A stretch of 64,000 bases of DNA, from NCBI GenBank assembly GCA_046563655.1, contig CM102287.1, positions 620,001-684,000 on the forward strand, written 5' to 3'. The notes under the pieces were generated by a model that saw only the letters and a program-made list of their open reading frames with translations, was not told the DNA's origin and did not search any database. The position numbers and the translations under genes are program-made. This DNA comes from Yuukianura sp. NJ FZ-2021. Lineage: Eukaryota. Position 1 is the stretch's first letter; each line of letters begins with the position of its first letter. Of the stretch, positions 33,351-54,550 are shown piece after piece.

Positions 33351-33366
33351 TTTCCAGCATTAACTA

Positions 33367-35032: not shown

Positions 35033-38000
35033 AATTCTCAACCGAATATCCAGAGGTGTACCTACAATTCAAGCTACTTCAAATCAATTCAAATTTTCGG
35101 CACTCTTGGACTCAGGATCTAAGTTTTGCATTATGACAGAACAATTGGCAAAAGACACCAAATCAAAAATTTCAAAATCAGAAACTTCTGTACTTCGCGG
35201 ATTGGCGGGGAAAGTACAAACAATTGGCAAAGTCAAACTTCAATTCAAAATTGGAAATCGATTAATCAATTGGCAATTTCAAGTAGTGGAGAAGCTTCCA
35301 GTCTCTTGCATTCTTGGAGCTGACTTCATTCAGAAAAACAAAATTCTGTTTGACTTAGACGAATCAAAATTTTGGTTCAAGGAGGAGCCACACCAAACAT
35401 TTTTCATCAGAGGATTTCATGACAAGAAACCCAAGCTTAGGCTATCAGTCACATCTTCCGCTTTCGAATTTTCCAGTAGAGAAAAGTCGATTGACGATCG
35501 TGTGAAAGAGATCCTAGACAAATTCCCAAATGTTGCAAGAAAGGATGGAAAATTTGGACGAACGGATGTCACATACCATGTCATTGACACTGAAGGTCCA
35601 CCAGTCAAACAACGTCCATACAAAACTTCACCAATGATGAGAGAAATTATCAAACAAAATGTCGAAATTCTAGAAAAAAATGGAATGATCAGACCATCCA
35701 GATCACCGTATGCATCACCAGTCGTTTTAGATCAAAAGAAAAATGGCCAGTGGAGGCTCTGCATTGACTACAAACGTCTCAATAAACAAACAAAAGACAA
35801 TGCTGGACCGATGCATAACGCTCACACAATTTTAAGACAAATTCCAGCAGGTTACTGGTATTCAGTCATTGATCTTCAGGCTGGATATTGGCAAATCATG
35901 CTGTCAGAAGAAAGTATTGAAAAATCCGCTTTCATTACAGAAGATGGACATTGGGATCTACTCGTTATGGGTTTCGGATTGAAAAATGCTCCAAAAACAT
36001 TTGCAGCATTGATGAACATTGTCCTTAAAGACGCAATTGGTAAATACGTTCATGTATTTATTGATGACACCATCATTTTCTCCAAAGATTTGGAAACTCA
36101 TCTCAAGCATATTGAAATGGTCATGGAGAAACTCAATACCGCAAATCTAACAATCAACTTGGAAAAATCAATTTTTGCCAAGCGGAGAGTTCCATTTCTT
36201 GGACATACAATTGGAGAAGACGGATTGAAAAAGAATTTAGACAAAATGGAAGCTATTACAGACTATCCAAAACCTCAATGTGTCAAGGACGTACAGCGAT
36301 TTCATGGCATGTGTCAATGGTATTCTACATTCATTGAACACTTTGCGCAGAAAGCTGAACCCTTATACAAGCTTCTACGAAAAGGAACAAAATGGAATTG
36401 GGGTGAAGATCAAGAAAGATCGTTCCAGACTCTCAAAAAAGACATTTGCAATGAAGTAATACTCAAAGAAGTCGACTATTCCAAACCAATTATCCTCAAA
36501 TGTGACGCATCCGATATTGGCTTGGGCGCAGCGCTGGTCCAAGTTATAGATGAAAAGGAACGGCCAATACTTTTCATCTCCAAAATTCTGAAGAAAACAG
36601 AACGGAGTGCACACATTTATGAGAAGGAAGTTTATGCAATCGTCTGGGCGTTAAAAACTCTCAAACACTATCTGCAAGGTTACAGTTTCAAAATCTACAC
36701 AGACAGCAGAGCAGTCAACTACATCAAAGGACTTAAAGACTCAAAACCAAAGTTCATGAGATGGGCTCAAGAAATTGATCGCTGGAATGCGACAATTGAA
36801 TTAAGAAAAGGCAAAGAGAATGTCGAGGCAGATGCTCTCTCACGGGCGCCAGTTGACAGTCACAATACAGAAGACATGGATGATCCTGAAGAGATCATCT
36901 ATACTCCTGTATGTTTCTGTTATGATACGCCGACATGGAGCCAAATCAAAAAAGAACAAGAAAAGGACATTGAAATTTCACGTCTCAAGAAATTGCTTTG
37001 TTATGACCCTTCAAATTCCAAGTGCGCACACTTCGTAGTTGAAGATGGAATAGTGAAGCGTCTAGTCGAGATTCCGCTCAAGAGAATCAACAAGTACTCT
37101 CTCGCAGATACTTCCGAGGTTCACTCATTAGTAGCTGAAACTCAAATTCAAAAAATGGAAATTCCGGGTTTCCAAAAATGTACATCCTGTGCCGAGGAAC
37201 AACTTCCAGTTCAGTCAGTAGGGATCGTTCCAGACTCAAATCAAACCAAAATGTCAAAACAGAAGTTAGTTTGGCAAAAAATCAAGATTCCAGTTATTCC
37301 AAAGTCACTCCAAAATGAAATTCTCAAGATATTTCATGATGCACCAGAGTCAGGTCATCCAGGAGTCAGGAAGACAAAGGAAAAAATCAAAGATAGATGT
37401 TTCTGGAATGGAATGAATAAGGACATTGCCGACTACGTCAAGTCGTGCAAAATCTGTCAAACGACAAAGCCAGACAATACCTTACCATCCGGGTTGCTTC
37501 AATCAAAAGATTACGCTACATCAGTTTTTTCTACACTACACATCGATTTTCTAGGCCCTATGGTGCCTAGTTCAAGAAGAAACAAGTTCATTTTGGTCGT
37601 AATCGATGAATTATCCAAGTGGGTGGAGCTATTTCCCATGACATCAGACACATCAGCAAAAGTTGCAGAAGTTTTAGAAGATTCAATATTTTGTCGTTTC
37701 GGAGTTGCCAAAGTTATCCTTTCTGACAATGCGAGTCAGTTCAAATCCAAAATAATCAAGAAATTGTGCAAACAATGGAGAATCCAACATCGTTTCATTA
37801 GCCCATACCATCCACAGCCAAATCAAGCAGAAAGAGTTAACAGAAATCTAAAGGCAATGATACAAGCATACGTCGAAAATAACCACAGAACTTGGGATGT
37901 TCATCTTCAAAAATTCGCATTTGCACTGAGAACATCAATAAACGAATCGACAAAAGTCACACCAGCTCTTTTGAACTTAGGCAGAAATTTGCCACTTCCG

Positions 38001-38552
38001 TTTGACAGAAATTTGGAAGCCGAAGGAAATACCAATTTTGACGAAGAAAGAGAGAAATTGACAGATTTACCCGAGAAACTACAAGAAATAATCAAATGGG
38101 TACGAGAGAACATGGAGGAGGCACATGAGAAAAATAAGAAAAATTACGACATTTCTCATCGAGAAGTTACGTACGACATTGGTGATTTAGTCTTGGTCAG
38201 AAATCACCCAATTTCCAAGAAGGACGATGCGGTTATGCAAAAACTTTCAAAACGTTGGCTTGGCCCATTCAAAATTACATCAAAAACCGCAGACGCAAGC
38301 TACGAGTTAGCAAATCCTGTCACAAACAAGAAATTCGGAAAACGTCACGTTTCGGAGCTAAAACCATTTTTTGTGCGAGAAGAAACTGCGTCAGAAAACA
38401 AGCCCAGTCACCTTCCGAAGACTAAAACAATTACCAGGAAGTTAGGCCAGAAGAAACCAACTACTGACATTCCGACAAGTCCAGCAGTTACCAGAAAATT
38501 ACGCGAAAGAAAACAAGTAAATTATAGGTCAATGGCAGGCCTACGTCAATAG
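34983..38552 (+). CDS. pol: Pol of element A (protease, RT, RNase H, integrase), expressed via -1 frameshift
   Basis: LLDSGS; WRLCIDYKRLN, DLQAGYWQI, FIDD; CDASDIGLGA; H...GH...CKIC; IDFLGP, SDNASQF, AERVNR; GPF. Confidence 0.96.
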   Translation, partial: FKLQRETPINTSMCVLPILNRISRGVPTIQATSNQFKFSALLDSGSKFCIMTEQLAKDTKSKISKSETSVLRGLAGKVQTIGKVKLQFKIGNRLINWQFQVVEKLPVSCILGADFIQKNKILFDLDESKFWFKEEPHQTFFIRGFHDKKPKLRLSVTSSAFEFSSREKSIDDRVKEILDKFPNVARKDGKFGRTDVTYHVIDTEGPPVKQRPYKTSPMMREIIKQNVEILEKNGMIRPSRSPYASPVVLDQKKNGQWRLCIDYKRLNKQTKDNAGPMHNAHTILRQIPAGYWYSVIDLQAGYWQIMLSEESIEKSAFITEDGHWDLLVMGFGLKNAPKTFAALMNIVLKDAIGKYVHVFIDDTIIFSKDLETHLKHIEMVMEKLNTANLTINLEKSIFAKRRVPFLGHTIGEDGLKKNLDKMEAITDYPKPQCVKDVQRFHGMCQWYSTFIEHFAQKAEPLYKLLRKGTKWNWGEDQERSFQTLKKDICNEVILKEVDYSKPIILKCDASDIGLGAALVQVIDEKERPILFISKILKKTERSAHIYEKEVYAIVWALKTLKHYLQGYSFKIYTDSRAVNYIKGLKDSKPKFMRWAQEIDRWNATIELRKGKENVEADALSRAPVDSHNTEDMDDPEEIIYTPVCFCYDTPTWSQIKKEQEKDIEISRLKKLLCYDPSNSKCAHFVVEDGIVKRLVEIPLKRINKYSLADTSEVHSLVAETQIQKMEIPGFQKCTSCAEEQLPVQSVGIVPDSNQTKMSKQKLVWQKIKIPVIPKSLQNEILKIFHDAPESGHPGVRKTKEKIKDRCFWNGMNKDIADYVKSCKICQTTKPDNTLPSGLLQSKDYATSVFSTLHIDFLGPMVPSSRRNKFILVVIDELSKWVELFPMTSDTSAKVAEVLEDSIFCRFGVAKVILSDNASQFKSKIIKKLCKQWRIQHRFISPYHPQPNQAERVNRNLKAMIQAYVENNHRTWDVHLQKFAFALRTSINESTKVTPALLNLGRNLPLPFDRNLEAEGNTNFDEEREKLTDLPEKLQEIIKWVRENMEEAHEKNKKNYDISHREVTYDIGDLVLVRNHPISKKDDAVMQKLSKRWLGPFKITSKTADASYELANPVTNKKFGKRHVSELKPFFVREETASENKPSHLPKTKTITRKLGQKKPTTDIPTSPAVTRKLRERKQVNYRSMAGLRQ

Positions 38553-38859
38553 TTAAGTCAAAATAATAATTAATAATTAGTTAAGAAATTATTCAAAGTA
38601 TTACAATATAAATCGTAATATTAATAGATTTATAATTTTCCTTTATTATTTCATAATTCATTCATATTTATTCATAATCGTACTGAAATAGTATAATTCC
38701 AGTATTTAGTTGTTAGATTTAATGTTAAGTAAAGTAAAATCGCACGTTGACGTTAAGCAGTTTCCGCTAAATCAGAGCTTTAGGCATATCCTCACCCACG
38801 AGCGCCACTCTCTCACATGCTTTCTAGATCCAGCACAGCACAGTCGAGAGATATACTCT

Positions 38860-38991
38860 AATTTCCCTGTAGAGGAAATTGGAATTCAAAAACTGAAAAT
38901 CTCCTGTAGAGAGAATTTCGGATTCAAAAAACGTTCAACTGATTTTCCAGAAGAGAAAATCGGTGTTGACTTCTCTGTAGAAGAAGTCGAC
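38860..38991 (+). promoter_or_regulatory. Four CNGNAGA-loop hairpins immediately upstream of ORF3 ATG
   Basis: AATTTCC-CTGTAGA-GGAAATT; AATCTC-CTGTAGA-GAGAATT; GATTTTC-CAGAAGA-GAAAATC; GACTTCT-CTGTAGA-AGAAGTC. Confidence 0.8.
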
Positions 38992-38992
38992 A

Positions 38993-41071
38993 ATGTCTGA
39001 CAAACGTTGTTCCGACGTTGAACCGAAGAAGAAATCGTTTCACGACAAGTTACTGGATGGATTCAAGGTTTCTGGACGAGTGGACGTATTACCACAACAC
39101 GACAAAAGATATCCTGATCTTGTTGCTGAAAGACGGGAAAGAAACAATTGGCCTGTGTTTCCCATTCGTAATCATCCAAAGTTCGGACTCGCGACGATGT
39201 GGAAACCGTCTGAATTCTATCGCAAAAGTTCATCGTTTCCTGTGACGAAACGGGAAAAAGTTCCCCTGACATTCGTGGATTCGGCTCTGAAATTTGAAGA
39301 AATGAAACGTGTGCTACAAGGAGAAACTGAAATTGGGGTTGACATTGAGAATTCGCTAATTCCGGACTACATTTCGAGATATACATGCCTGTTGCAATTT
39401 TCAACATTCAAAGAAGATTTCGTGGTTTGTCCGTTCCTACTTCATGCAAAAATCAAAGAATTGGAATCAATTTTTCTCAATCCGGATATCATCAAAATCA
39501 TCTTCTCTGCTCAAAACGATCTGTTAGCATTGGCACTGGATTTCCAACTCTTTGCTGTAGCGGTAATCGACCCACAAATCATTCATCGTGAATTCATTGG
39601 TGAGAACTTGTCACTGGAAAAATTTGTTCAACTTTACATGGATAAATCTACTCAAATTGACAAATCGGCTCAATGCTGTGATTGGAGAGTACGACCATTG
39701 AAGTCCGACATGTTGAACTACGCTAAAGACGACACTCATCTGTTGATTAGAGCATGGACTACAATGAAAACACAACTGGGATTGTTTAAAGAAGAAAACA
39801 AAAAGAAATTACAGAAGTCTATCGAAATCTGCAACCGAATGGTAACGAAGATTCCAAAATTACCAGTTTATCCATCGGCCGAAGAATTATCTTACAAGTT
39901 GCGAGTTCCAGTCAGTCAAAGCAGTTTGTTTGATGACTTGTACAAATGGAGACAAGAATTGGCCAAAAGGAAGAATGTGGAACCGAAATTTATCATGTCA
40001 GATACAACTTTACTTGAATTGGCAAACAACTGCCCCATTCGTACCACAAGATCGCACAATCAAGCAGGAATTCAAGATTTTCTGCGTAAAAATTCAATGG
40101 CATGGGAACGAGCTGACGATCTGGTGAAAATCACTAGAAAGTATGACAAGTACAACTACGATGTACTTAAACAAAAAGTCAACTACTTCTTTGGCTCACA
40201 GAAGAATTCCAATGCAAGTAACAAGAAAGATGACATGCAGTCTAAATTAGTAACAACGTCTACTAGAAGTAACAAAACTACTGAAATTGTTGAGAGACCA
40301 ATGGAAGTGACCACTACTCGAAACATCGCTGCTAAAGAAGACGACAATAGGTCAAAGCTATTGCCGACTTCTGCTAAAAGTGTCAACAACACTCAAATTA
40401 CTGACAAACCAACGGAAGTGAAAAGCAGTCGAAACGTCACTTTAATTCAAACCAAACCGGCACAACAAGACGTAATAACCGACATCCAACCAACGTTTAC
40501 TGTACAGCTTCCATCATTGACAGAATATCTGCAGATTCATGCTGACGAGGATATGGAAGATATAACTGACGAGTTGCAGATCAGCATCCAACAAAACGAG
40601 AGACAAGTGGTGACAGTTCCTGCATCAATTCAAAAGCCAAGTTACAAAGATTCACTTGTTTGTTATCTTTGTTTCTCAAACGGGCACAACAGACACGACT
40701 GTCCTCAAGTCAACAAAGAACCGGACGCAAGGAATACTCTGGATAGAAAACAAAACCGGAAACTCTATTTTGAACAACGTCCAGAAAAGAGAAATCATTT
40801 GACTCATAAAATGAATGTCAAAAGAAGGGAGAAACTTAAGAAGAAACGTCAATCTGGAAATTCTGCATGCTGTTTTCGGAACTCCGGACGTGTCGAGTGG
40901 AAACGAGGCGACAAGAAGACGAAGATTGTATCCGCTGGTCGAGGTCGGAGGACCGTGCATGAGGGTCGCGCTGATGGAGGCGCATTTCCCGGGCGCAATA
41001 TGAAGCGGAGAGGGACTGACGAAGGACGGATTCGGAACTCCGGGGAAAACCGAGTAGGTAGGAATAGGTAG
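38993..41071 (+). CDS. ORF3: Rrp6/EXOSC10 (RNase D family)-like DEDDy 3'-5' exonuclease + HRDC + CCHC knuckle (692 aa)
   Basis: ExoI IGVDIE, TCLLQFSTFKEDFVV, ExoII SAQNDL, DWRVRPL, ExoIII YAKDDTHLL; HRDC-like LFDDLYKWRQELAKRKNVEPKFIMSDTTLLELA; CYLCFSNGHNRHDC; ORF ends inside 3' LTR. Confidence 0.92.
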   Translation: MSDKRCSDVEPKKKSFHDKLLDGFKVSGRVDVLPQHDKRYPDLVAERRERNNWPVFPIRNHPKFGLATMWKPSEFYRKSSSFPVTKREKVPLTFVDSALKFEEMKRVLQGETEIGVDIENSLIPDYISRYTCLLQFSTFKEDFVVCPFLLHAKIKELESIFLNPDIIKIIFSAQNDLLALALDFQLFAVAVIDPQIIHREFIGENLSLEKFVQLYMDKSTQIDKSAQCCDWRVRPLKSDMLNYAKDDTHLLIRAWTTMKTQLGLFKEENKKKLQKSIEICNRMVTKIPKLPVYPSAEELSYKLRVPVSQSSLFDDLYKWRQELAKRKNVEPKFIMSDTTLLELANNCPIRTTRSHNQAGIQDFLRKNSMAWERADDLVKITRKYDKYNYDVLKQKVNYFFGSQKNSNASNKKDDMQSKLVTTSTRSNKTTEIVERPMEVTTTRNIAAKEDDNRSKLLPTSAKSVNNTQITDKPTEVKSSRNVTLIQTKPAQQDVITDIQPTFTVQLPSLTEYLQIHADEDMEDITDELQISIQQNERQVVTVPASIQKPSYKDSLVCYLCFSNGHNRHDCPQVNKEPDARNTLDRKQNRKLYFEQRPEKRNHLTHKMNVKRREKLKKKRQSGNSACCFRNSGRVEWKRGDKKTKIVSAGRGRRTVHEGRADGGAFPGRNMKRRGTDEGRIRNSGENRVGRNR

Positions 41072-41365
41072 AGTAGGAGGACTATGTTCTCGAGATAGGA
41101 TACAGAAATATTCTTTTTCACATTTTTCTGTAACGAGAGTCTCTTCCCAACCTTCAACAAGTGAACACCTAATTAAAAGTCTATTCCATTAGTTCACTGT
41201 TGTTGTCACGACCAGTTCATTTCTCAGTTGATGTTGGCTCAATAGGAGAACCTAGCATTGTTGACCTCAGGTCAAATCTTCTCTCCAGGAAGATTCGACC
41301 TGAACTGCAGATTTCCCTGTAGAGGAAATCACAGTTACGGTCTCAGGGACTGCGGGGTTGTTGCA
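41001..41365 (+). repeat. 3' LTR of Gypsy element A
   Basis: Direct repeat of 32124-32488. Confidence 0.97.
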
Positions 41366-42420
41366 TATTTGCCATCGTTACCAACTGGGAACAAATCCAT
41401 CAAATATCCCTTTGTCATTTTTGAAAACTGCCTACTTTTGATATTAAGTTGCGTTGAGTTACTTAGCATACCTATTTGTAAGAAGTATTTATAATGTCAA
41501 GCAACTAGTTAGTCTCATAGGCAAGATAGAGCTACATATTTGCAAAGCATCCAGTAATGGGGCTCTCGATACTGGTGTTTACATTTAGAGCCCCATGATT
41601 TCACTACAGTAAATGGCTATCCCCCCTAAGTTATCTGATGAAGGTTTCTCATTTTGGAGCCCTAACATTAGAGGCTTGGCAGGGTTGTGGGTATTGCTAT
41701 AACTTCAATGTAACCTTTGCATGTTTTGTTGGCCATGATTTTAGTAAAGCATTTATTCTAAAGCAAATTGTGCTGATATTTGCCATCGTTACCAACTGGG
41801 AACAAATCCATCAAATATCCCTTTGTCATTTTTGAAAAGTGCCTACTTTTGATATTAAGTTGCGTTGAGCTACTTAGCATACCTATTTGTAAGAAGTATT
41901 TATAATGTCAAGCAACTAGTTAGTCTCATAGGCAAGATAGAGCTACATATTTGCAAAGCATCCAGTAATGGGGCTCTCGATACTGGTGTTTCCATTTAGA
42001 GCCCCATGATTTCACTACAGTAAATAGCTATCCCCCCTAAGTTATCTGATGAAGGTTTCTCATCTTGGAGCCCTAACATTAGAGGCTTGGCAGGGTTGTG
42101 GGTGTTGCTATAACTTCAATGTAACCTTTGCATGTATTGTTGGCCATGATTTTAGTAAAGCATTTATTCCAAAGCAAATTGTGCTGATATTTGCCATCGT
42201 TACCAACTGGGAACAAATCCATCAAATATCCCTTTGTCATTTTTGAAAACTGCCTACTTTTGATATTAAGTTGCGTTGAGTTACTTAGCATACCTATTTG
42301 TAAGAAGTATTTATAATGTCAAGCAACTAATTAGTCTCATAGGCAAGATAGAGCTACATATTTGCAAAGCATCCAGTAATGGGGCTCTCGATACTGGTGT
42401 TTACATTTAGAGCCCCATGA
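41366..42420. repeat. Satellite array block 3 (~2.6 monomers)
   Basis: Monomer resumes in register after TSD; ends abruptly at AGCCCCATGA. Confidence 0.99.
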
Positions 42421-42803
42421 TGAGGCAGACGGAACGTCTCTACTTGACCTCTGACCTAACTGACTCCTATGCTGCCCTTACTCCAACAAATGAAAAATGA
42501 GATGGAAGGCGAAGATCGGTCAGAGAGCTCTGTCTTGGTTGAGGTCTTTATTCATACTAGCCCTGTCTATATACAAGTTTTCCCTATCTCTCATCATTTT
42601 GAATTGTGTTCCCGCCGGGGTCTCACCTTACCCGGTTGCACACTACGGGCTCTAAAAAGAACCTCCGGGAAGGGGGGGGGGGTGATCTGCCAGTGACGAG
42701 GGGGTCCTCGGGCGACGTGTCCAGGCGGCAATTCCAAGTCCAGATGAAATCCAATGTACAGGTCTGGTTGTGATCATGATGAGGGATTGTAATGATGAAG
42801 TGT

Positions 42804-44870
42804 TTATTGTTGATTTGGATTTGAATTAAATCGAAGATAAGGGTGGAATCCTCCGCATTTGTCCATGACTTTGCGCTGATTGTGTTTTTTCAATGGAATG
42901 AAGTAGTCTGGATACTTGTAGTGGAGTCGTTTCTTTTGACAGGCGCGTAAAAACTTGAATTGTGATGACTCCTTAATAAGTGGATCGTTGTGAGGACATT
43001 GTTCTCGTTGATGATCCTCGGCAAAACAGACGAAACAGTGGACTGGACATTGTGGAAGTAATTTCTGCGGAACGGATGGTTGTTGTGGATTCGGCGATTT
43101 TGCCATTGGAATTGTTGGAAGACTATTAACAGGCGTAGAAATGGTGGAATAAGGTTGAAGTACAGCAGCCAATTCAGTAGATGTGGTGCTATGTACAGGC
43201 GTAGAGATGGTGGGACTTGAGGCGAATAGTTTCAGTAACTTTGAGTTTTCACTCGTTTGGGGCGGAATGATGTTGGTTTCCGCGGGCGTTACATCGATAA
43301 CACAAGAGTCCGTCTGCGTCTGTGCAGTTGCCGTGATGGTGGTTGGCGGGGCTTCAGTTTGAATAGCCACTTCTGCATATGTTTTGATGTTGGGTTGTTC
43401 CATTGATGTGGTAAAATCTTGCAAAGTTTGTGTATCTTCTAGAGACATTGCTGAGTCACTGTCGCTTAAGTCGATGATTGGACGAAAATTGACAGTTTGT
43501 GGAATCGGCATTGTGAATGGTGGCCTGGGCGGTTGTTGAGCGAGTTCCGAATCCCAATCTTCTTCCTCTTGATTTGTGTTTGTGGGAGTTGTAACTTTAA
43601 GAGTTGAATGTGGCGGTACGACAACGACTGAGCGGATTTTTGGGCGATTTGTAGTTGGTTTCGGAGTAGATGATGTTGGCTGGACTGGAAATTTCTTGAT
43701 CAGATGCAAAGTCGGGTAAGCCATGAATCTTGAGAAGTAGCTGTGAGATGCTGACTGTGGCTCAATTTAATTTAAATCTGCACTTCCTTTGATCTGGTGA
43801 GCTTCTTTAACAATGTTCAGTAGTTTTTCTCTGGAACACAGTGATCTGGGTGGAAGGTCCTGATTTTTGCCAATTTCATTTCGCTTGTCGAAAATATGGA
43901 GAAGTAAGCGTTGTTGACTTGGACTTAAATCTTCTCTGTTCTGGATAGAATCGAATGTCTCCACAACGGGTTGAATGAAGTCTCTGGAGTGTTTTGGAGG
44001 TGACCAAGTAACCTGTAGCCATTGATCTTTGTATTGAGGAAAGTCAGTTGCAGATCCATAACGAGATTTACAGCGGTTCCATGCTTTGAGAAGAAAATGA
44101 GAGTCAGTGCGAGCATAATGGAGTTGTTCTTCAGTGAGGGGGCGTTTGGTCCAGTCTGTTGTAGCTCCGATTGACTTGTCGGTGAGTTTTTCATCATCGA
44201 AATGAACGTGTTCTCGGATGACTGTCCAGAAATCAGCTTGTTTGGATCTTTTCTCAAAATCGTACTGATGTTGAAATCTGTAGTAGACTTTTTGCAGATC
44301 AATGACAGCAACCGGAGAAATGTGGTAGAAAAGATGCCACTTATGTAAGTCTTGTTCTCCGGCATGTAGGATTTTCAAAATATTGGGGCTCTCCAGGATG
44401 GTTTTCAGTTGGCAAATTGAATCAGCAAATTTCAGTGGACATAAGATGTAATCAGTTTCTTGAGTAGAGAATTGCATCAAAGCTGGGAAGGTATGGCCGA
44501 AGTAAGAGAGATCATATTGTGGAGAGAATTCCATGTCCAAACCGATTTCGTCTTGAATTGACAGATCATTTAGCATTGAGTTGAAGTCGTCCTGAGTTTT
44601 GATGACAATGAGTGGAGTAGTTTGGCGAGTGTCATCCATTGAAAGATCATGATGTGGTTTGACATGTCGTGGTTCAAGTGCAAAGTTTAGGATGGCCTTT
44701 CGATTTACATTTTCAGGGAACAAGATTCCCGCGTGATTCCGTTTGATTGCAATTTCTCGAAAGGCTTTGTACTCAAGATTATTAAAAGGCCGGATTCTTT
44801 TAGTTGCCGCATCATTGGTGTTGGTGACTCGTTCCATGACCGATTTTCTGAGTAACTGACTTTCTGCCAT
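42804..44870 (-). pseudogene. Second Rrp6-like exonuclease + HRDC + CCHC ORF3, ~688 codons with a single in-frame TAA at 43767-43769
   Basis: IGLDME, ALMQFSTQETDYIL, HAGEQDL, DWTKRPL, YARTDSHFLLKAW; HRDC-like QQRLLLHIFDKRNEIGK; the 42 nt between ORFs 43767-44870 and 42804-43724 are open and in frame; CFVCFAEDHQREQC. Confidence 0.85.
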
Positions 44871-44944
44871 CTACAAGATGAAATAAATCAAATGAGTCAT
44901 GATTGACTAAATTGTTTTTAGAAGAGGCAAAGTGGTGAAAAACA

Positions 44945-45219
44945 TTCCAGAAAGCGGAAAATCCTTTAGTGGACATGCAACAAATTTCCTTCAAGTGGAA
45001 AAGTCTTTAATTAGACAATGTGACTTTAGTTCTTTAAGTAGAAAGTCCTGAATTGGACATTTTCAAAATTCCTTAATCGGAAAGTCTTGAATTAGACAAC
45101 GAAATCGAATTTCCCTAAATGGAAAAGTCCTAAATCGGACATTTGAAATTTCTTTAATCGAAAAGTCTTGAATTAGACATTTGAATTTCTTTAATTGAAA
45201 AGTCCTGAATTGGACATTT
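44945..45219 (-). repeat. ~40-bp-period array of alternating hairpins upstream of element B ORF3
   Basis: Seven GTC[C/T]-N6-[G/A]GAC-type units alternate with TT(T)C-N6-7-GAA(A) units. Confidence 0.85.
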
Positions 45220-45376
45220 AATGAGTTCAACATTTTTATTTTAGTTGTCTTGCTTTCGTAATGCTAACATAATTGATTTGCCTCTGTAACCAGCAAGTGT
45301 TCTGTATGATGAGTGAGGTGAGCCACTTCTACCCCCGTATTTCTCAAATTGCCCCAGGTCAACATGCGCAAAAGGA

Positions 45377-45511
45377 CAATTACGGTTGCGCGGTATTACT
45401 GTATTTCCGGTGGTACGGCGACACGTTATTCACGGTTGCGGTGACCTGAAAGGCAATTACGGTTGCGCGGTATTACAGTATTTCCGGTCGTACGACGACA
45501 CGTTATTCACG
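45377..45511. repeat. Subterminal tandem repeat (~77-bp period, x2), probable Polinton TIR region
   Basis: CAATTACGGTTGCGCGGTATTAC...GACACGTTATTCACGG occurs twice. Confidence 0.65.
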
Positions 45512-45828
45512 GGTTCACGGTATATATTCAATCATTGCTCTACGGTATTTATCCCGTTTTGAGATATTTCATCATCACCAGTTTCGCGATACGAGAATTT
45601 TCTTTGGTTAAGTGCAATCAAGCTAGGTGAAGAATTTACGTCGCAAACAATATATGTGAAAAGAAGCACTATGCGCTATGTTCATTTAAAAAGTGTATAT
45701 TGTAATTCCCTTAAATATGAATGAGTGCTAAAACGAAAAAGAAAGAATTAGGTAGCTATTATCAAATCCTAACTAAAACCTGCAGTATCTATCGAGAAGC
45801 TGAACTGGACACATCGTTGAAAACAACC

Positions 45829-46304
45829 ATGAGGCAAAAGTACGTGTTCCATCACGAACATTATTATAATACTTTGAGGGACCAAATTGGGCATGGTATC
45901 CCTGTATTTCATGGTGTGCGTCAGAGAGGAGGAGGCATTGGTTCTATCTTGGGGGGTTTGGCAAAATATGCTTTACCAATCATAATGAAGTGGATCATCC
46001 CGCACGCACGACAAGCGGCGGCTAAAACTGTGAAGTTACTGGTGGAACTCATTCAGTTAAGAGTGCTCTCAAGAAAAACAGCATTGGCTTCCTCAAAGGC
46101 GTCGGTACCGACTTGCTGAATTCTGCAGATAGCGGTCAAACCGGGAAAGGGGTTCGTTCTAAAGCGAAAAAGACTTATACCAAAAAGAAACCCCGAAAAC
46201 AAAGTGAGAAGGTTAAAACGAAATCCGTTGCGAAGAAAAGGAAGGCTTCGTCATCTTCAAAAAAAAGTACTTCCAAGAGATCAAAGCTTGACATATTTGC
46301 ATAA
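45829..46304 (+). pseudogene. Polinton basic Gly-rich core/cement-like protein (frameshifted)
   Basis: QIGHGIPVFHGVRQRGGGIGSILGGLAKYALP, QTGKG, Lys-rich tail ending DIFA, directly upstream of MCP. Confidence 0.7.
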
Positions 46305-47602
46305 TGTCACTCCTTCACTCAAGGTCTAAGCCAGCGATTCGGGGTGAAGTTGATTTGTTTTCGATCCCCGCAACAGATACTACCTGCGATTATAGCATGT
46401 ATGAAGAATATCAACCTGTAGTGAACGTTCAAGACTCTTCTAACAAAATTGAGTTTAAGATTCCCGGGAATGGGAATCATTATTTGGATTTAGCAGATAT
46501 TTTCTTGCGGATCAAGCTGAAGGTAGCTCAGAAGAACGGATCACCATTGGGGACAGACTCGACCGTTGGAACAGTTAACTTGTTCATGCATGCACTATTT
46601 TCTCAGCTTGATATTTACTGCAATGAAAAACTGGTATCCACTAGCAACAATGGGTATTCCTACAGAGCATACATCGAAACGTTATTGTGCTATGGGAAAG
46701 ATTATAAAAGCTCTCAAGGCGGATGTGCCCTTTATTACGAAGATACGAATGGTGGAATTGCGGATTCATCGAATACTGGATGGCAAAAACGGAAATCTTA
46801 CATAAGTGAGTCCAAAACCGTAGAGTTAATTGACAAACTCCGGTTTAATCTGGCAAACCAACATCGTTACATTCTGAATGACGTCAACGTAAGAATTTGC
46901 CTGACAAGATCTTCAGATTCGTTTGCACTTTTCTCAAAGACGAAAGGCGAGGAAGGTACAATCAAGCTCCTGTCAGCAACTTATTATATTCGTAAGCAAG
47001 TTCCATTCCCGAGCATAATTCTGGCACACCAAAGGCTCCTAGAAAAGGGGAGATAGCCCAATACCCATTTAAAGCAACAGAAATGAAGTACTTCACTATC
47101 GCACAAGGAAATTCGTCAGCATTGGAGGAGAATCTGTTTGCGAACACTGTGCCCAGTCGCATTGTGATTGGATTTGTAGACAGTTTAGCCTTCAACGGAG
47201 ACGTCAATTCAAATCCTTTTCGGTTCCACCATTTTCACATCAAAACGATTTCCATATCTGTCAACAACGTTTCAATACCAATACGTCCCTTGACACTAGA
47301 TTTTGCAACAGATGATTGTCTTTTGGCGTACTACCTACTTTTCACGAGCACAGGGATTGCAGGTCAAGACGTTGGACTATCATTTGGGCGTGAGGAGTAT
47401 AAAGAAAGCAACGCACTCTTTACATTCGACATTCAGCAACCCACGGGGAATGAATCATTGCTTCACTTAGAAAAAATCTGGAAACGTAAAAGTTGAAGTT
47501 CAATTTGGCGTAGCATTGGAGAAGTCAGTTCATTGTATCGTCCTATCTGAACATCAAGGGGTTCTGGAAATCGATAAGTTCAGACAAGCAGCTGTGCAAT
47601 GA
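46304..47602 (+). pseudogene. Polinton major capsid protein (double jelly-roll), two frameshifts
   Basis: EVDLFSIPAT...IEFKIPGNGNHYLDL, HALFSQLDI, YSYRAYIETLL, PSRIVIGFV, NPFRFHHF; tail GNVKVEVQF...VLEIDKFR. Confidence 0.88.
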
Positions 47603-48158
47603 ATACCACAGAAATCCGGAATATTCTTAGAAGAGGCAGCAAAAACTCATACCAGACGGCGGTACTACCCTCCGACAAGTTAAATGCAGTCACCTCAGAC
47701 CAATTTGCAATTGTGGCAAACTCTCAAACATCTAAAGAGCCAGGCATGCACTGGATAAGTATGTTTAAAAAACGAGGAAGTAATGAGGTAGAGTTTTTCG
47801 ATAGTTGTACCATGCCAATTGAATTTTACAACACTAGTTTTGTCAGTTTTCTTTTTTCAAAGAGCAATGTCAGAATGAGTAAATTTAGGGTACAACCTGA
47901 GCATAGCAACGCTTGTGGCAATTTTCATTGTATTATCTCTTTCACAGGATTAGTGGGGAGTCGTTTGAAACAATTTTGAGTAAATTTGACGAAATTGACT
48001 TAGTTAAAAACGACACTCTTGTTAGAAACTATTTATATGCTAACTTTGGGTACGATAACTCATTCAACATCGAGAGTGGTAGCAACCACGATATCCGTAC
48101 TGAGGTGCAGGAAATTGTGCAGTGTTGTGAAATTGTGGAAGTTCTTCTTTGCTTGTAA
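47599..48158 (+). pseudogene. Adenain-like cysteine (capsid maturation) protease, frameshifted
   Basis: PGMHWISM (His), EFFDS (Asp), VQPEHSNACG (Gln/Cys). Confidence 0.85.
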
Positions 48159-48257
48159 GTGGGTTTAAACAAATGTAATATTAATAATAACCTTATGATT
48201 CACTAATGTTTGAAATATATGTTAATTAATAAATATTTCAAAATTTTATTGAAGACA

Positions 48258-49178
48258 ATGAAATCCAACGTTGCAAAACAGTATAAACGCATAGGAAGAA
48301 TCGGTTATTTGGGCAGCAAAAGAGTTCTGAGTAAGTTGTGCGGAATTCCAGAATCCGAAGCTTTGAAGTTTATGCAGTCACAAGACTCATACACTCGTCA
48401 CAAAAGTCGTAGATGCAAGTTCCGCAGGAGGCGAGTGATTTCACATGGACTAAACTACCTATGGCAAGCAGACATTGTCTTCTTGCCAAAGTATACTGAC
48501 GAGAACGATGGATATTCATGTCTTCTGACTGCGATAGATGTCTTATCCAAATTCGGATTTGCTGTTCCCATGAGGTCCAAAAAAACCTGTGAAGTCATTC
48601 AAGCATTTAAAAAAATTCTGTCGTCTGGAAGACGGCCAACAACACTCGAGTGTGACCAAGGTGGTGAATTTTGGTCGGCAGCTTTCAAGAAATGGGCCAA
48701 GTCACAGGGAATACTAATGTATCATAACTTCTCAGACTTTGGCTCATCTGTCGTGGAAAGATTTAACAGAACAATTTGTACTGCCATTTCTAAGCATCTT
48801 ACACAAACCGAAGAGAAAAGATACATTGAAGCACTACCTTTACTATTGAAGACATACAATAGCAGGGTGCATTCTCGTACGAATCACGCCCCGAGGAATG
48901 TCGATAAATATAACGAAATGGACGTATGGCTGGAATGCTACAAGGATTTGTATATGAACCCAAAGCGCAAGCCTTCTTTAAAATTGTACGACAGAGTCCG
49001 TTTAGATAAAACAAAGAAGATATTTGAGAAAGGTTATTGGCCAGCATTTACAACCGAAGTTTTCGAAATTGCTGAAGTTATAAATTCCATTCCTGTGACG
49101 TACCGTGTCAAAGACCTGAATGGTGATCTAATTTCTGGAATCTATTACAGTCAAGAGCTCAGCAAGATAAACAACTAG
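48258..49178 (+). CDS. Polinton retroviral-like (c-)integrase
   Basis: LWQADIV, IDVLSKF, CDQGGEF, VVERFNRT, FEKGY...FTTEVF. Confidence 0.93.
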   Translation: MKSNVAKQYKRIGRIGYLGSKRVLSKLCGIPESEALKFMQSQDSYTRHKSRRCKFRRRRVISHGLNYLWQADIVFLPKYTDENDGYSCLLTAIDVLSKFGFAVPMRSKKTCEVIQAFKKILSSGRRPTTLECDQGGEFWSAAFKKWAKSQGILMYHNFSDFGSSVVERFNRTICTAISKHLTQTEEKRYIEALPLLLKTYNSRVHSRTNHAPRNVDKYNEMDVWLECYKDLYMNPKRKPSLKLYDRVRLDKTKKIFEKGYWPAFTTEVFEIAEVINSIPVTYRVKDLNGDLISGIYYSQELSKINN

Positions 49179-49186
49179 TTAACGAC

Positions 49187-49947
49187 ATGGCCTTCTACGC
49201 TACACTTCTGTCAAACGGCTCACGTTATTTCGCTGATAACCAAACGGCAAACTATAGGATAAAGCTTCCATCAAAAGTGAAACTTGAACCCTCGTCATAC
49301 GAAGTTGGGCTCACCGAATTAACCTATATTTGTTCAATAAAAACTATAACAGGAATTGAACAAGATAACGTAATTAGGTTTACTGGAGTTAATAGAGCAG
49401 GAAAAATAGAGCTTCCAACACTTCATTATGTTGGTGTTGAAGATATAGTTCAGACAGTGAATAGGTTCTTCCGAAAACACGAAGTGCCTTGTAACCTAAA
49501 ATATTATGCAGTAAAATGTCGTATTAGTTTGGAGGTTGGTGGTGGATATTCTATTGAGCTGAGCGACAAACTTTCTGATATTTTTTTTGTTTTAATGGGG
49601 AAACCGAATTTAACTCTAACCTACCGGAAGGATCATCGTCAGCTTATTACATAGCACCATTCAGACCCGATTTGCTTGGAGGGAGGTACCACATGTTTAT
49701 TTATTGTGACATAATCGAATCTCAAATCGTCGGTTCTTCGTTTGTTCCTCTTCTACGTATGGTTAATATCATTGGAAACGAGGGACAAGCAGTAACTCAA
49801 ACTTTTGCACATCCGTTCTACCTACCAGTTTCTCGAACAGAATTCGACATCATCTCAATTCTCTTGTGCGACGAATTTGGCGAGGAGTTACCGATCGACA
49901 AAGGTCAGGTCACATTGACCCTTCATTTCAGAAAAGTATCCACCTAA
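49187..49947 (+). pseudogene. Polinton minor capsid (penton-like), frameshifted at T-run ~49585
   Basis: FYATLLSN...YRIKLP...YEVGLTEL; YCDIIESQIVG...PLLR...LTLHFRK. Confidence 0.8.
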
Positions 49948-50667
49948 TGGAAAAGGACACGTATGAGTTCAACACCATTCAATTGCGTCACCCGTTTACA
50001 TACATTGTTGCTGGTGGGACGATGTCGGGGAAAACAACGCTTGTCTGCAAATTAATTGAAAACCTAGATCTTATGGTTACGCCAAGAATTGATGACGAAA
50101 TCGTTTTTTATAAAGTATATCAAAGTGGATATGACGTAATGAAATCATCCAACTCAAGAGTCAGGTGCATACAAGGTTTGAAGTTGGATGAAGTCTATGC
50201 ACCGAATACGTTACTTATCATTGACGACCAGATGGCAGATTTACTAAAGGATAAGGCAGTTCAAGAACTTTTTACTTGTGGTGTTCACCATAGGTAATTA
50301 CACGTTGTTCATTGTAAATTATCATAAGAATTTCGTCGTTCACACATTACTTTGGAATTTCAGGTCAATATCCGTTATATTCTTGTCGCAAAATCTGCTG
50401 CCTCAGGGGAAATATGCGAGGGATATTCGTTTGAATACACATTACATGACGATTTGCAAAACTCCCTCCTTCCCTTCGCAAGTGATGTACCTGAGTGGAC
50501 AACTTAATCCAAGAAAGCCTAGTGCGATTTTAACAGCATATGAACAGGCAACTCGGAAGCCTTATTCCTACTTGTTTTTGAACTTGCATCCAAGCTGTCA
50601 CGATAATTTACGAATTCAGTCAGGGATTTTTCCTACGGAAGAGCACATTGTTTACGTGCCAAGTTAA
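49947..50667 (+). CDS. Packaging ATPase (A32/FtsK-like) with intron 50294-50363
   Basis: Walker A GGTMSGKT, Walker B LLIIDD; splicing joins HHR|SISVIFLSQN; RDIRLN. Confidence 0.88.
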
Positions 50668-50678
50668 AGTACTTCAGA

Positions 50679-51027
50679 ATGACAAAGCGGTTAGTAAGGA
50701 ACAGAACGTTTCTGGAAGAGGTGAAGAAGTGTAAACCGTCTAAGCGTAGAAATTTAATAAAAAAAAGCTACAAAAGACAACATTGACGCCCTTTCTGAAG
50801 TCGCACTAAATACACTGCTTGGGAACGTTCCATTGAACAGGGAACATAAAAAAAAACTTCGACGACACAAGGTCAGCATCCGAAATCTAGCAAAAAAGTT
50901 TTCAATTAAAAAGAAAAAAGATTTCCTGATACAAAAAGGTGGGTTTCTACCTTTGCTGGTTACGCCTGCTTTGTCTATACTTGGTGGTCTCGCAGCGAAC
51001 GCCCTGACTCATATCGTTGGTTTGTGA
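50679..51027 (+). pseudogene. Small basic Polinton protein with adenovirus pX-like C-terminus (frameshift in A-run)
   Basis: EVALNTLLGNVPL...QKGGFLPLLVTPALSILGGL. Confidence 0.65.
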
Positions 51028-51608
51028 TGTCTAAGAAAATGAAGCTAATACCACATTTAGAGTACGAAAAACTCATTGCATTACAACGGGCGCCTCAACT
51101 TTTACACAAATCTGCCGCTGTCCAACTCATACACCGAAAACACGCTGCTGCCACAAATATTCTAAAATGGAATTCGGTTTCAGACGACGCCAAACTAGCT
51201 TTGTTCAATAGCATGGTAAAAGGTCTACATGAAAATATTTCGGCCTTGTCGAACATTCCACTTCGCGTCGAATCTGAAAAATTAACTAGCGAACCACAAA
51301 AACCGGAAGAAATACCTAAAAACGATGCAGAAACAACAGTAGACCAGTTACTGTACAACAGTCATCTTGCCAAATTTCTACCAAAAAAGTACCAAGAGGT
51401 TGCTTTAAAAATCATGCAAATTCTTTCGAGTTCTGCATTCAACATATCATGGGATGAAGCTGGTCAGGTTTCATATAAAGGTGTGCCCAGAAGCGGAGCA
51501 AACACCATTGAGTTGCTGACATATGTTCTTAAACCTCCGGCAAAAGTGACTCCTCCTAAAGGAATTAGAACATTTATTTATATTTTGAAGAAGGTGCACA
51601 TTCCAAAG
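51027..51608 (+). pseudogene. Conserved Polinton protein of unknown function, 3' truncated
   Basis: MSKKMKLIP; ISWDEAGQVSYKG...SGANTIELL...PKGIRTF...VHIP. Confidence 0.55.
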
Positions 51609-52112
51609 GATGCTGTGATTTGCTTCTATTGCGGATTATGCTTGACCTCTTGGTCACCACTTGATTCGCCATGGCTCGAACATCGAATTCACTCTCCGAA
51701 TTGCGCCTACTTAAATTTGCATCATCCGGTCACAAATGTAATAGCATATTGTATATTACAGTTTTTAAAGTTGTCTAATGAGTGTAAAATAACTGGTTAT
51801 TCATTATTGAAATCTTCTTTTAGATGCCTACGGAGGCTGAGTCAGTCGATACTAACATTCAGCAAAATATTGAAGCCGGTAAGAAGATATCTAAAAAGTC
51901 ATTTGTTGACCCGATTAAAAAATTCAATAACATTTTACAGAGCTAAACAACCTCAAGGCCTTGGTCCAGTGTAAGATTTGCATGACCCGCCAAGTATCCT
52001 AAAGTTTGCTCCTTGCTGCCACATGGTAACGTGTCTCGAATGCTGCACCACCCAGTCAATATGTCCACTATGCCGCACAGAAGTTCGACTTATTTTGAAA
52101 GTCTTTTTATAA
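51609..52112 (+). pseudogene. Inhibitor-of-apoptosis (IAP)-like remnant: half BIR + C-terminal RING
   Basis: DAVICFYCGLCLTSW...PWLEHRIHSPNCAYL; CKICM...(frameshift)PCCHMVTCLECC...CPLCRT..LKVFL*; GT-AG intron ~51879-51940. Confidence 0.82.
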
Positions 52113-52163
52113 TGAATGTTAGAATGAAAGTTATAATGAAAGTTAAACATAAAGGTTTAGGTT

Positions 52164-54550
52164 TTATTTTCTCAATAAGTAGTGACCGTAAGGCATTGTT
52201 GAAATTCCGTCTTCTAGTATACTATATCGTTTTGAGTCAAAACCATGTAATGCAGCCTTTTTCGTTTTGATATTGTAAACTTTATGTTTAAAGGAACGCA
52301 TTGAGTTTGTTGAGCAGCATAGCATCTTTTGCTTAAATAAAACTTTCTTTAACATTTCAAATGATATTGAGTTTTGTTGTATTCTTTGCGGTACTCCTTT
52401 CATTGCTGTCTTCTTAAACACGGATTCATCGTAATCTTCACCTTCAAAGCAATACGACTTCGGGGCAAGTCCAACAAACTTTGTAAGAATTTTGCCTTTA
52501 ACTTCGTCTTTCATTTTTCCTGTAACACCAGCGTTTTTCGTGGAATAATTAGGATGTAAAGTCGGTAAGTTGCTGGTGTCGAACAAATGAAGATCATTTT
52601 CAATATCCTTGTAAATATCAGCAGTGCTAATCAAGTATGATAAGCTGTCCGTGTCAGTCATCAGTAGTGTTGCATTTTCACCCCATTTTTCTTTCACATA
52701 GTCGTAATGGAAACGTGCCATATGAAGTTTGCTTAACTTTAGCACGGAAAATCCGGTGTAGATTGCCTTGTTTAGTGTAACAACTGATTCCTGCATTCGG
52801 AAGCAAGCCAGGTTTGATGCCAAAATGTCATGTGACAGAAATTGACACTTGGATATTAACTTGGAAGCAGTTTTTCTGTCGTTCACAACTTTAACGTTCA
52901 TGCGCTTTCGTACGGATTCCATTTCTTTCCCGAAGACCGCGTTAACACATAGTTTGAAAAACATTCTCTGGAAATCATTTTTGGCCATACGGCGCTGAGT
53001 GCTGTTGAACTCGACGTAAGACTTGAGCCAAGCCATTTGCCTAAATGCAAGTATTCTGGAAATTTTGTCGATCACCAAACCCTTCTGGACGTAAAATTTT
53101 AGATTTGCAACATGGCAAATGTAGTTTTTACGAGGGTAAAAGTGAGACACCAACTTATCTTATGCCTCCATGTAGTTGATTGGGAGTTGCTCAAGCATTT
53201 TCTTTTGGACACGACTAAAATGACGCGAGTTTACCGAAGTCTTCTCACACGCCAATGGATAGCACTTGTGTTTATTGTGCAACTCCGCTAATATATTTTT
53301 GAGGTTAAAATATATTCATTAACCGCAAATAAATATTTATAACAACATGTACCTGGATAAGATAGATCTACTTCCAGAATATATCCAATCTCATCATCAG
53401 GATCAACGTCGTCAATTTTGAAGTTACTGATAAGTTCTGTGGAAAAAAAAATGTAAGCAGAAAAAACATTTGAATTATAAAATTTTTAATATAAAGAAAA
53501 ATACCATTGTTTAAGAAAACAAATCCGTCTACGGGTAGTTTGCTTTCCATCGCTTTCCCATATAGGTTTACCATGTCCCATAACACGATATACAGTTGAT
53601 TTATATTTCTCTCGTCACCAGTATAGTTTTTCATTTATTTGTTCTTCGCCTCTGCGTACCGATGAGATATTTGTGAAACACCACCTAATAATTATAACCA
53701 GCAGTTTATCACAAAAGCTAAGTTGAAGAATGATTATTAGTAAATAAAAATTTTATACCTCTCATTCCTTTCTCAAGGAATGTGTACATGTCGATATCGG
53801 TGAGAAGCTCCAATTTCACACCTGAAAGCTTCAAGGCCGCGTCCCATGCGAGACCAGGCAAGGAGAAATAATGTACCGGATCAAGCTTGAAGTTCCGTAA
53901 CGCCATAGTCCGGAATTCTTCAAATACACAAGCCAAAAGTAGTGCGTCCGTTAACAAGTACAGATCATGGTACTCCCCAAGTGATGTCAGTCCAAAGCTT
54001 TCAAAAACTTGTTTAGCATACATGTAGTCGGAGGTTGTAATGTGACTGTTTGTAAGCGTGTTGAAAAATTTCGATTGTGTTGGCAGAGACGGTTCATCAA
54101 ATCGTTCCCAGGAGTCGATGTAATCATAAGGGTACACACCTTTTCTTGTTAGGAATTCAAATTTACTTCCGAAGACTTCCTGGAGCAATCGAAATCCAGT
54201 ATTTCCATTTTCTTTTAAGTTTGCGGTAAGTTCATTCAACGAACAATTCATGAACTGAAGGCTGTCAATGAACTTCAAAGACTCAATTGTAACCGACATG
54301 TACTTCTCCGTATTTGTAGGTATAACTTTTATATTCTTCGCACGAACATTGTTGAGTCCTTTTATTATGAGGCGGTGATCGTAGCCACGGAAGTTGTGCA
54401 TCTGCAAAAAACATAACAAAGCTTATAAGTAAAAGCAAACGGTGTTCATGAATATATGATAAATATATGATCCTCTGACCACTACTGGAAGAACTTCCTT
54501 GTGTTGAAATTGTAGATTACAGCTATCATGTGCAGCCCCACGAAAAACAC
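52164..54550 (-). pseudogene. polB: Protein-primed DNA polymerase B, 3' exons (introns 54402-54479, 53685-53758, 53437-53504, 53288-53352; internal stop ~53636)
   Basis: FRGAAHDSCNL, HNFRGYD, FIDSLQF, RKGVYPYDY, YHDLYL, RGGVSQ, DMVNLYG, EVDLSYP, KLCVNAVFGK, TDTDS, FVGLAPKSY. Confidence 0.92.

Follow-up and report, generated by a model that had tools for sequence, protein, structure and literature searches.

We analysed a stretch of 64,000 nucleotides (nt) from Yuukianura sp. NJ FZ-2021 (assembly GCA_046563655.1, contig CM102287.1, positions 620,001 to 684,000 of the forward strand; hereafter the window, in whose numbering all coordinates are given). It contains an open reading frame (ORF) of 688 codons on the minus strand (42807-44870), referred to here as ORF B, which encodes an Rrp6-like exonuclease with a CCHC zinc knuckle and is interrupted by one in-frame TAA. 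ORF B is probably what is left of one copy of a multi-copy retroelement that has been truncated and inactivated, namely its third gene and a tail resembling a long terminal repeat (LTR). The encoded protein belongs to the same old, transposon-borne gene family as that of the third ORF (ORF3) of element A, a complete Ty3/gypsy element in the same window, and this family has kept its active site in many lineages.

ORF B is made up of two ORFs in the same frame on the minus strand, 43767-44870 (367 amino acids) and 42804-43724 (306 amino acids). The TAA at codon 368 (43767-43769) is the sole in-frame stop on read-through, which agrees with the initial annotation, made from the letters of the window, where about 688 codons had been counted if one TAA was ignored. 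A TAG is found in frame immediately 5' of the ATG at 44870, and therefore ORF B is a separate ORF without fusion to upstream sequence. Its N-terminal region (residues ~20-85, 44616-44813) carries an RP(F/Q)xN...RN...P motif, as seen in an alignment of 15 sequences, and is the counterpart of the linker that precedes the exonuclease (EXO) domain in Rrp6/EXOSC10; in the family profile, the match to EXOSC10 starts at position 21. The DEDDy 3'-5' exonuclease domain follows at residues 89-264 (44079-44606) and is matched by Pfam PF01612 (DNA_pol_A_exo1) with an E-value (E) of 2.2e-22. Its catalytic residues are complete, namely D112 and E114 in LDME, D174 in EQD, and Y252 and D256 in YARTD, and these three motifs had already been described as intact.

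Residues 317-393 (43692-43922), which include the position of the stop codon, form an HRDC-like helical bundle according to an AlphaFold model and Foldseek. Pfam HRDC remained below threshold for this region (E 0.12, 12.8 bits vs a cutoff of 23.8). The predicted HRDC domain of ORF B is recognisable by its fold and by family context, not by Pfam. Hence, the exonuclease and the CCHC knuckle of the domain order originally proposed (exonuclease-HRDC-CCHC) are confirmed, and the HRDC part fails the Pfam cutoff and is represented by a helical bundle in the model and the fold match. The bundle is followed by a linker (residues 400-606, 43053-43673) that is rich in proline, serine, threonine and acidic residues, holds the sequence EEEDWD, and is predicted to be disordered, with a predicted local distance difference test score (pLDDT) below 50. 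The CCHC zinc knuckle, CFVCFAEDHQREQC, occupies residues 612-625 (42996-43037). In the 15-sequence alignment, C615 is invariant, and conservation is 90% or more at C612, H620 and C625. A conserved basic C-terminal tail with two predicted helices (residues 626-671, 42858-42995) completes the protein.

The AlphaFold2 model of ORF B was computed from the 15-sequence alignment, with an X placed at the stop. The pLDDT was 85-97 for the exonuclease and 81-93 for the helices at residues 317-393, falling to 51-65 around the stop (residue 368), and 83-90 for the knuckle and the two helices that follow it (residues 611-671). When the model was compared with known structures by Foldseek, the top matches were the catalytic cores of Rrp6 (EXO and HRDC), with 4nlc as the best (E 5e-15); about 355 columns were aligned, and the TM score on the target was 0.56-0.62.

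Element A (32124-41365, plus strand) provides the intact counterpart of ORF B. It has both LTRs (32124-32488 and 41001-41365) with TG..CA ends, a TATT target duplication from insertion within a 411-bp satellite, and a primer binding site that matches the 3' end of a tRNA one base past the 5' LTR. The gag ORF (33367-35010) and pol (35019-38552), with protease, reverse transcriptase (RT), RNase H, integrase and SH3 regions, are followed by ORF3 (38993-41071), all on the plus strand. ORF3 encodes an intact protein of 692 amino acids with matches to PF01612 (E 6.8e-25) and HRDC (E 2.8e-10) and a CCHC knuckle at residue 557. All three ORFs are open, and because the LTRs are 99.5% identical over a 368-nt BLASTN match, element A is judged to be young.

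The initial annotation had placed ORF B about 1.4 kb from element A, with an unrelated terminal sequence and an ORF of almost the same length that shares only scattered motifs with ORF3 of A. Each of these statements was borne out. The 3' LTR of A ends at 41365, the stop of ORF B is at 42804, and the sequence in between is satellite up to 42421. The 3' flank of B has no BLASTN match to the LTR of A. When the two proteins were aligned by BLASTP, as had been proposed, they were 28% identical over 278 amino acids (E 1e-24), with the named motifs present in the alignment and the CCHC regions aligning separately (E 0.001). ORF3 of A and ORF B are colinear over their full length of 692 and 688 codons, respectively (linker, EXO, HRDC and CCHC), and they have in common the absence of the PMC2NT domain, the CCHC knuckle and the basic tail.

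The first 367 amino acids of ORF B were used as a phmmer query against 1.84 billion cluster representatives, which yielded 1652 proteins at E<=0.001. All family analyses described here use the best 150 of these 1652 matches. A CCHC motif downstream of the exonuclease domain was found in 17 among the best 150 matches, in addition to A and B, and the best matches show the entire architecture of ORF B. The layout common to the family begins with an N-terminal motif (RPQxN...RN...HP...W) and continues with ExoI-III, DWxxRPL, HRDC, an acidic linker with a tryptophan motif rich in D/E, CX2CX4HX4C and the tail, which has the form NKxxFYxxxP followed by basic residues in the 15-sequence alignment. In three matches (P0013, P0034 and P0097), the exonuclease is preceded by a homologue of the last ~130 amino acids of the pol product of A, the integrase SH3 region (E 1e-17 to 5e-18). 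The gene models of these three relatives have evidently joined the end of pol and ORF3. Therefore, the gene sits directly behind a gypsy integrase in other genomes too.

Further searches were made with other tools. A word-indexed protein search gave no match with ORF B as query and one match, P0027, with ORF3 of A. The same type of search with the family alignment at longer lengths returned a host EXOSC10 chimera only, and no pol-ORF3 fusion turned up. In the ESM Atlas, the matches to ORF3 of A were Rrp6, RNase D and euglenozoan CCHC clusters only, all below 0.9, and they serve as a lead only. We also observed that the acidic tryptophan motif (for example EEEDWD, DDWES, DEDWEG, DEQWEV or EDNWEP) is found in the disordered linker of most members, which cannot otherwise be aligned; in ORF B it lies at residues ~445-452 (window ~43515-43538). 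It could represent a putative short docking motif.

The phylogenetic position of the family was assessed with the region equal to residues 20-360 of ORF B. For FastTree, 148 of 152 rows were kept, and four pieces shorter than 220 amino acids were dropped. All rows with a knuckle fell together with A and B into one clade of 43 rows (support 99), apart from 87-89 rows of the Rrp6/EXOSC10 type and 16 rows of the bacterial RNase D type. A second tree was computed by IQ-TREE under LG+C20 from 79 rows, namely the 43-row clade in full plus 28 rows of the Rrp6 type and 8 of the RNase D type; the rows of these last two types were chosen by hand for spread. The 43-row clade received a Shimodaira-Hasegawa-like approximate likelihood ratio test (SH-aLRT) value of 99 in the quick search, and a bootstrap of 100 and an SH-aLRT of 99 in the careful search, with a warning from IQ-TREE that the bootstrap was not fully settled. 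In the careful search, A and B were found together in a subclade of 24 rows (97/98), and the Rrp6 rows formed a group of their own (99/87). The nearest relatives of A are P0008 and P0012 (~40% identity), and that of B is P0003 (31-35%).

The domain content of the family is consistent with this tree. PMC2NT (PF08066) was detected neither in A or B nor in any of the 15 clade members scanned (15/15), whereas 4 of 9 host-type matches carry this domain. A profile of 15 family members, searched against the PDB, matched Rrp6/EXOSC10 with E 1e-67 to 1e-62 over the linker, EXO and HRDC. Weaker matches of the same profile were E. coli RNase D (1.7e-27), mut-7/Nibbler (5e-21) and the RNase D-CCHC protein of T. 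brucei (5e-14 to 7e-17). Many of the Rrp6-type matches also have the RPQ motif upstream of the EXO domain. Judged by these comparisons, the family of A and B is an Rrp6-type catalytic core without PMC2NT and without the long C-terminus. Since A and B fall into one clade, both lack PMC2NT, and both have the same knuckle and the same tail, separate captures are very unlikely, and by this evidence the family has a single origin, or at the least one that A and B have in common.

The family also bears marks of selection. Of the 43 clade rows, 37 retain the catalytic residues D-E-D-Y-D and three have lost them. The other three rows (P0004, P0040 and P0119) read DEED, the change being at the ExoII position. 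Contigs covering the stretch of ORF B were collected from four public runs with two organism labels, and 113, 131, 49 and 44 contigs, respectively, were found at 85-100% identity. Among the 113 contigs of run X1, 40 are at least 99% identical to the window, 36 are at 95-99%, 24 at 90-95% and 13 below 90%. Among 307 differences between copies, the 40 listed include 20 sites in the ORF, mostly contributed by one or two variant contigs and located at 42821-42976 (six of them below 42858). Thirteen of the sites in this small sample are at third codon positions (binomial p 0.004); 14 of the changes are synonymous and 6 are non-synonymous. A variant with 31 additional letters at 43168/43169 is found among other copies of ORF B in all four runs; counting an overlap of 2 nt, it amounts to +33 nt, in frame and within the disordered linker. 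The conserved catalytic residues, the mostly synonymous differences between copies, the in-frame variant and the young element A with its open ORFs point to purifying selection on the ORF3 gene in active elements. The copy of ORF B in the window is itself dead, to judge from its one stop. The initial annotation had regarded the cassette as an old, selected feature and not as a one-off capture, and the clade with 100/99 support, the same derived architecture, the conserved active site and the gypsy integrase in front of three relatives support this view.

Next to the stop of ORF B, 382 bp separate the gene from the satellite, which resumes at 42421. They contain a candidate 3' LTR of B (42422-42760, minus strand; ~339 bp, similar in length to the 365-bp LTR of A), which has TG...CA ends, a TATATAG sequence (42567-42573) and an AATAAA sequence (42547-42552), and which abuts the satellite. 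Diverged contigs (records 1, 2, 9 and 17) extend from ORF B into this LTR-like tail. From these features, we infer that 42422-42760 is an LTR.

Upstream of ORF B lies a non-coding spacer of 436 bp (44871-45306, minus strand). It contains tandem repeats of 37 bp (45030-45219), and a pyrimidine-rich ...cttgtag immediately precedes the ATG. The predicted fold of the spacer is no more stable than those of shuffled sequences (z -0.09). The spacer breaks off at 45306. Contigs belonging to three runs and two organism labels depart from the window on either side of 45306/45307: those on the side of B have one common continuation, and those on the right have three different left flanks (loose ends 45299-45311). 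Therefore, the right-hand sequence is the terminus of a different mobile element, by which B is interrupted or truncated. This terminus (45307-45720, plus strand) belongs to a neighbouring Maverick/Polinton-like element and is not part of B. The missing pol of B is uninformative, because the spacer between pol and ORF3 in A is 440 bp long and the break lies 436 bp upstream of the ATG of B. Altogether, B represents part of a mobile element that exists in multiple copies and whose ORF3 belongs to a family linked to gypsy. That the B element is an LTR element is quite likely and a reasonable inference.

Several points weigh against this account of B. Within the window, the candidate LTR has no second copy detectable by BLASTN, and no polypurine tract adjoins it. 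No B-type pol or gag was found near B or elsewhere in the window by tblastn with pol and gag of element A and of element C, another gypsy element described below, so that the retroelement class of B derives from the homology of its ORF3 and the LTR-like tail alone. Nor does the window contain the 20-mer that follows position 45306 in other copies of B. The 'second, very divergent LTR family' of the initial annotation is thus plausible in view of the LTR-like 3' tail and the multiple copies, whereas neither pol, gag nor a second LTR was found for B in the window. Summed depth is higher over the tail than over the ORF in only two of the four runs, which does not help the LTR reading and was not used. 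The tree samples the best 150 matches to ORF B, the label of transposable element for rows without a knuckle is taken from the tree itself, and long branches could group fast-evolving sequences artificially. To these points are added the Pfam score of the HRDC region and the small number of contigs behind the copy differences, both mentioned above.

Other explanations of ORF B were weighed against the same data. B may represent another type of element or a distant lineage (another gypsy clade, BEL/Pao or a Penelope-like element) that gained the exonuclease-CCHC gene from gypsy by recombination or template switching. In that case, the gene would come from a common pool of ORFs and would not be an old feature of the clade. 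A precedent is found in bdelloid rotifers, where, according to passages of a 2017 report, DEDDy ORFs are common to Juno, Vesta and the Penelope-like Athena, and exchange between retroelement types was argued (Rodriguez, Kenefick and Arkhipova 2017, PMC5408684). The RT of B is missing from the window, so nothing there contradicts such an exchange, and A and B have different nearest relatives (P0008 and P0012 vs P0003). However, all three relatives with preserved upstream context have a gypsy-type integrase C-terminus homologous to the pol product of A, and the layout of B from ORF to tail mirrors that of A in order and size (688 vs 692 codons, ~339 vs 365 bp). We therefore assign module exchange a minor, though appreciable, probability. 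It is extremely improbable that A and B took up a host Rrp6/EXOSC10 gene independently and that their architectures then became alike by convergence. Among cellular proteins, Rrp6/EXOSC10 is indeed nearest to both, and the identity between A and B is only 28%. Nevertheless, A and B are united with 41 other representatives in a clade (100/99) to which none of the 28 Rrp6 rows (99/87) belongs, and the loss of PMC2NT, the position of the CCHC knuckle and the conserved tail are common to both and found in no host Rrp6.

ORF B could also lie outside any retroelement, either as cargo at the end of the neighbouring Maverick/Polinton-like element or as a domesticated host gene undergoing decay. Of the genes adjoining it in the window, those that can be recognised as belonging to a mobile element are all Maverick-like, starting ~0.85 kb upstream on the other strand, and there is no pol upstream of ORF B in the window. 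Yet the contigs from three runs and two organism labels diverge both ways at 45306, with three flanks on the Maverick side and one continuation on the side of B. Moreover, ORF B is multi-copy, with variants at 85-99% identity and an internal stop. A constant position within Maverick terminal repeats was not observed, as no inverted repeat pairs the side of B with the far side within the window. This explanation is accordingly improbable, and the third gene and LTR-like tail of a truncated retroelement copy remain the reading that we prefer for ORF B.

The surroundings of A and B contain repeats and other mobile elements. The 411-bp satellite takes up a large share of the window as long tandem arrays at 334-21686, 28423-32123 and 41366-42421, with copies that are 95-100% alike. 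Inside the satellite lies a BEL/Pao-type pol (22721-27813, plus strand) in two overlapping frames, with DUF1759, Peptidase_A17, RT, an integrase zinc domain and DUF5641. The Maverick/Polinton-like element spans 45307-54569 and 61085 to at least 62572. It encodes an rve integrase (48210-49178, E 3e-13) and a protein with an inhibitor of apoptosis (BIR) domain (51024-51974, E 3e-11). Weak matches were obtained for an adenoviral protease (Peptidase_C5, 47599-47979), a packaging-ATPase-like ORF of the P-loop A32/FtsK type (49767-50297) and polB-like fragments (53718-54422, minus strand). The Maverick label rests on these weak Pfam matches and the rve integrase. A search of 42500-64000 for terminal inverted repeats gave only short, chance-like pairs, and an ORF of 478 amino acids (61136-62572) had no match in the PDB. 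Nested in this element is element C, a Ty3/gypsy element on the minus strand (54570-61084), whose LTR pieces (54570-54869 and 60785-61084) are 98% alike. It contains gag (59893-60633) and pol (55655-59929), and the latter is 30% identical to pol of A. A small ORF after pol of element C (54990-55604) has a CCHC end, CFICDQYGHKKKHC, and no exonuclease, with a weak likeness to the family knuckle (E 0.002-0.004).

Two further features of element A were observed. Its gag is without a canonical CX2CX4HX4C motif; the sole knuckle-like stretch is CMKCKGFGHLTKMR, in which Arg replaces the last Cys, and the knuckle of A ORF3 is complete. In addition, A carries a small hairpin motif with the stem TTTCC/GGAAA and a loop resembling CTGTAGA (window 32430-33350 and 38860-38990). 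One such hairpin is found per LTR, at least seven in the 5' leader and four in the spacer between pol and ORF3. The hairpin pattern has 25 matches in the window vs 7.8 expected, mostly within element A, and the pol-ORF3 spacer folds as four hairpins (z -4.0). This motif could be a putative packaging or protein-binding signal.

Exonuclease ORFs of this kind have a published precedent. In a search of the full-text literature, with subscription journals and Repbase outside its coverage, the only reports of exonuclease ORFs in LTR elements were the 2017 rotifer report (PMC5408684) and an opinion article citing it (PMC6338049). According to passages of the rotifer report, Juno and Vesta, two LTR clades of bdelloids, carry RNase D-like DEDDy ORF3s, as do the Penelope-like Athena/Terminon elements. 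These ORF3s were acquired at least twice and are more closely related among themselves than to their cellular counterparts. They read DEED instead of DEDD, a Cys-His-Cys motif is found in Vesta2 and Vesta5, and all pol genes of Juno, Vesta and TelKA carry a dUTPase. The authors suggested processing of RNA 3' ends and mentioned a mut-7-like role (PMC5408684). Thus, DEDDy ORF3s in unrelated LTR lineages have already been published for bdelloid rotifers, and the idea of the initial annotation is less new than it had assumed.

As far as those passages go, A and B resemble Juno and Vesta in having a third ORF after pol that encodes a DEDDy 3'-5' exonuclease, in the presence of more than one such LTR lineage in one genome, and in that the transposon-borne copies are nearer to one another than to cellular relatives. 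They differ from them in several respects. The pol of A matches 11 Pfam families, none of which is a dUTPase, unlike the rotifer pol genes, and A and B read D-E-D-D-Y, in contrast to the DEED of the rotifer ORF3s. Neither the Rrp6 linker, the CX2CX4HX4C motif nor the conserved tail is described in these passages of PMC5408684, and the term 'HRDC' appears 0 times in its main text, a distinction by description and not by sequence. Because the three clade rows P0004, P0040 and P0119 also read DEED, the rotifer ORF3 genes may belong to the same superfamily.

Among cellular proteins, Rrp6/EXOSC10 is the most similar, as it has the linker before the EXO domain, the DEDDy EXO domain and HRDC, and gives the best profile and fold matches. 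PMC2NT binds Rrp47, and the C-terminus of Rrp6 binds the exosome core. In contrast to Rrp6, the A/B family has no PMC2NT, and where Rrp6 has its long C-terminal region, the family has the acidic linker, the CCHC knuckle and the basic tail. Moreover, Rrp6 is a single-copy cellular gene, whereas the genes of A and B are transposon-borne and multi-copy. RNase D of T. brucei, which trims the U-tails of guide RNAs, likewise combines a DEDDy exonuclease with CCHC (PDB 7C42-7C4C, deposited as 'CCHC-type domain-containing protein'; fold E 1e-7), and one of the entries is titled as a complex with U12 RNA. It is, however, a cellular gene far more distant than Rrp6 and matches over the EXO domain only (~235 columns); the analogy is functional only. 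Nucleases of the mut-7/Nibbler type act on small RNAs and have the DEDDy EXO fold (profile E 5e-21, fold E 3e-8); they match far more weakly than Rrp6 does, and neither HRDC nor the linker gave a match. Finally, the position of ORF3 between pol and the 3' LTR, overlapping or abutting the LTR, is that of env in insect errantiviruses (gypsy) and retroviruses. In contrast to env, ORF3 of A and B encodes a nuclease and no membrane protein, and the relation is one of position only.

From these data, we propose the following model. The Maverick/Polinton-like element that begins 436 bp upstream of the start of ORF B would have removed the rest of the B element from the window. The family core consists of the linker before EXO, the DEDDy exonuclease and HRDC, with loss of PMC2NT and of the exosome-binding C-terminus. 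Their place is taken by the disordered acidic linker, the CCHC knuckle of the retroviral type and the basic helical tail. Translation of ORF3 could start from a separate mRNA that is probably spliced, in the manner of env in gypsy-type elements; a spliced subgenomic mRNA is suggested because a pyrimidine-rich sequence ending in AG precedes the ATG of B. Knuckle and basic tail may bind single-stranded nucleic acid and thereby tether the nuclease to the particle or ribonucleoprotein of the element. There, the ORF3 protein would act as an exosome-independent 3'-5' exonuclease that trims or degrades 3' ends. As substrates, we would consider, in order of preference, the 3' ends of the element's own RNA or complementary DNA (cDNA) intermediates, then, in a role of counter-defence, small or antisense RNAs of the host or tails that target RNA to the exosome, and then mis-incorporated 3' ends (proofreading). 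A special role in primer processing is argued against by the ordinary tRNA primer site of A.

A bolder proposal, which we put forward tentatively and consider rather unlikely to hold as a whole, is that a widespread Ty3/gypsy lineage, undescribed outside bdelloid rotifers, carries an Rrp6 core freed from the exosome, together with a knuckle of the retroviral type, as its third gene. It would be represented by two deeply diverged branches (28% identity) in one genome, and the kept active site would mean that the element needs the enzyme; in the boldest version, this enzyme would be a counter-defence nuclease that clears small or antisense RNAs of the host, or 3' tails targeting the exosome, from the RNA of the element.

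Apart from env, accessory genes are rare in retrotransposons, and for most of them there is no explanation. That a nuclease derived from an enzyme of nuclear RNA surveillance has kept its active site in many retroelement lineages, and occurs twice in one genome, argues that it is useful to the element. The family extends the rotifer observation of 2017 with a better-defined architecture (Rrp6 linker, EXO, HRDC, CCHC and conserved tail), and it offers a concrete protein for asking how retroelements handle the 3' ends of their RNA or cDNA or evade RNA-based silencing.

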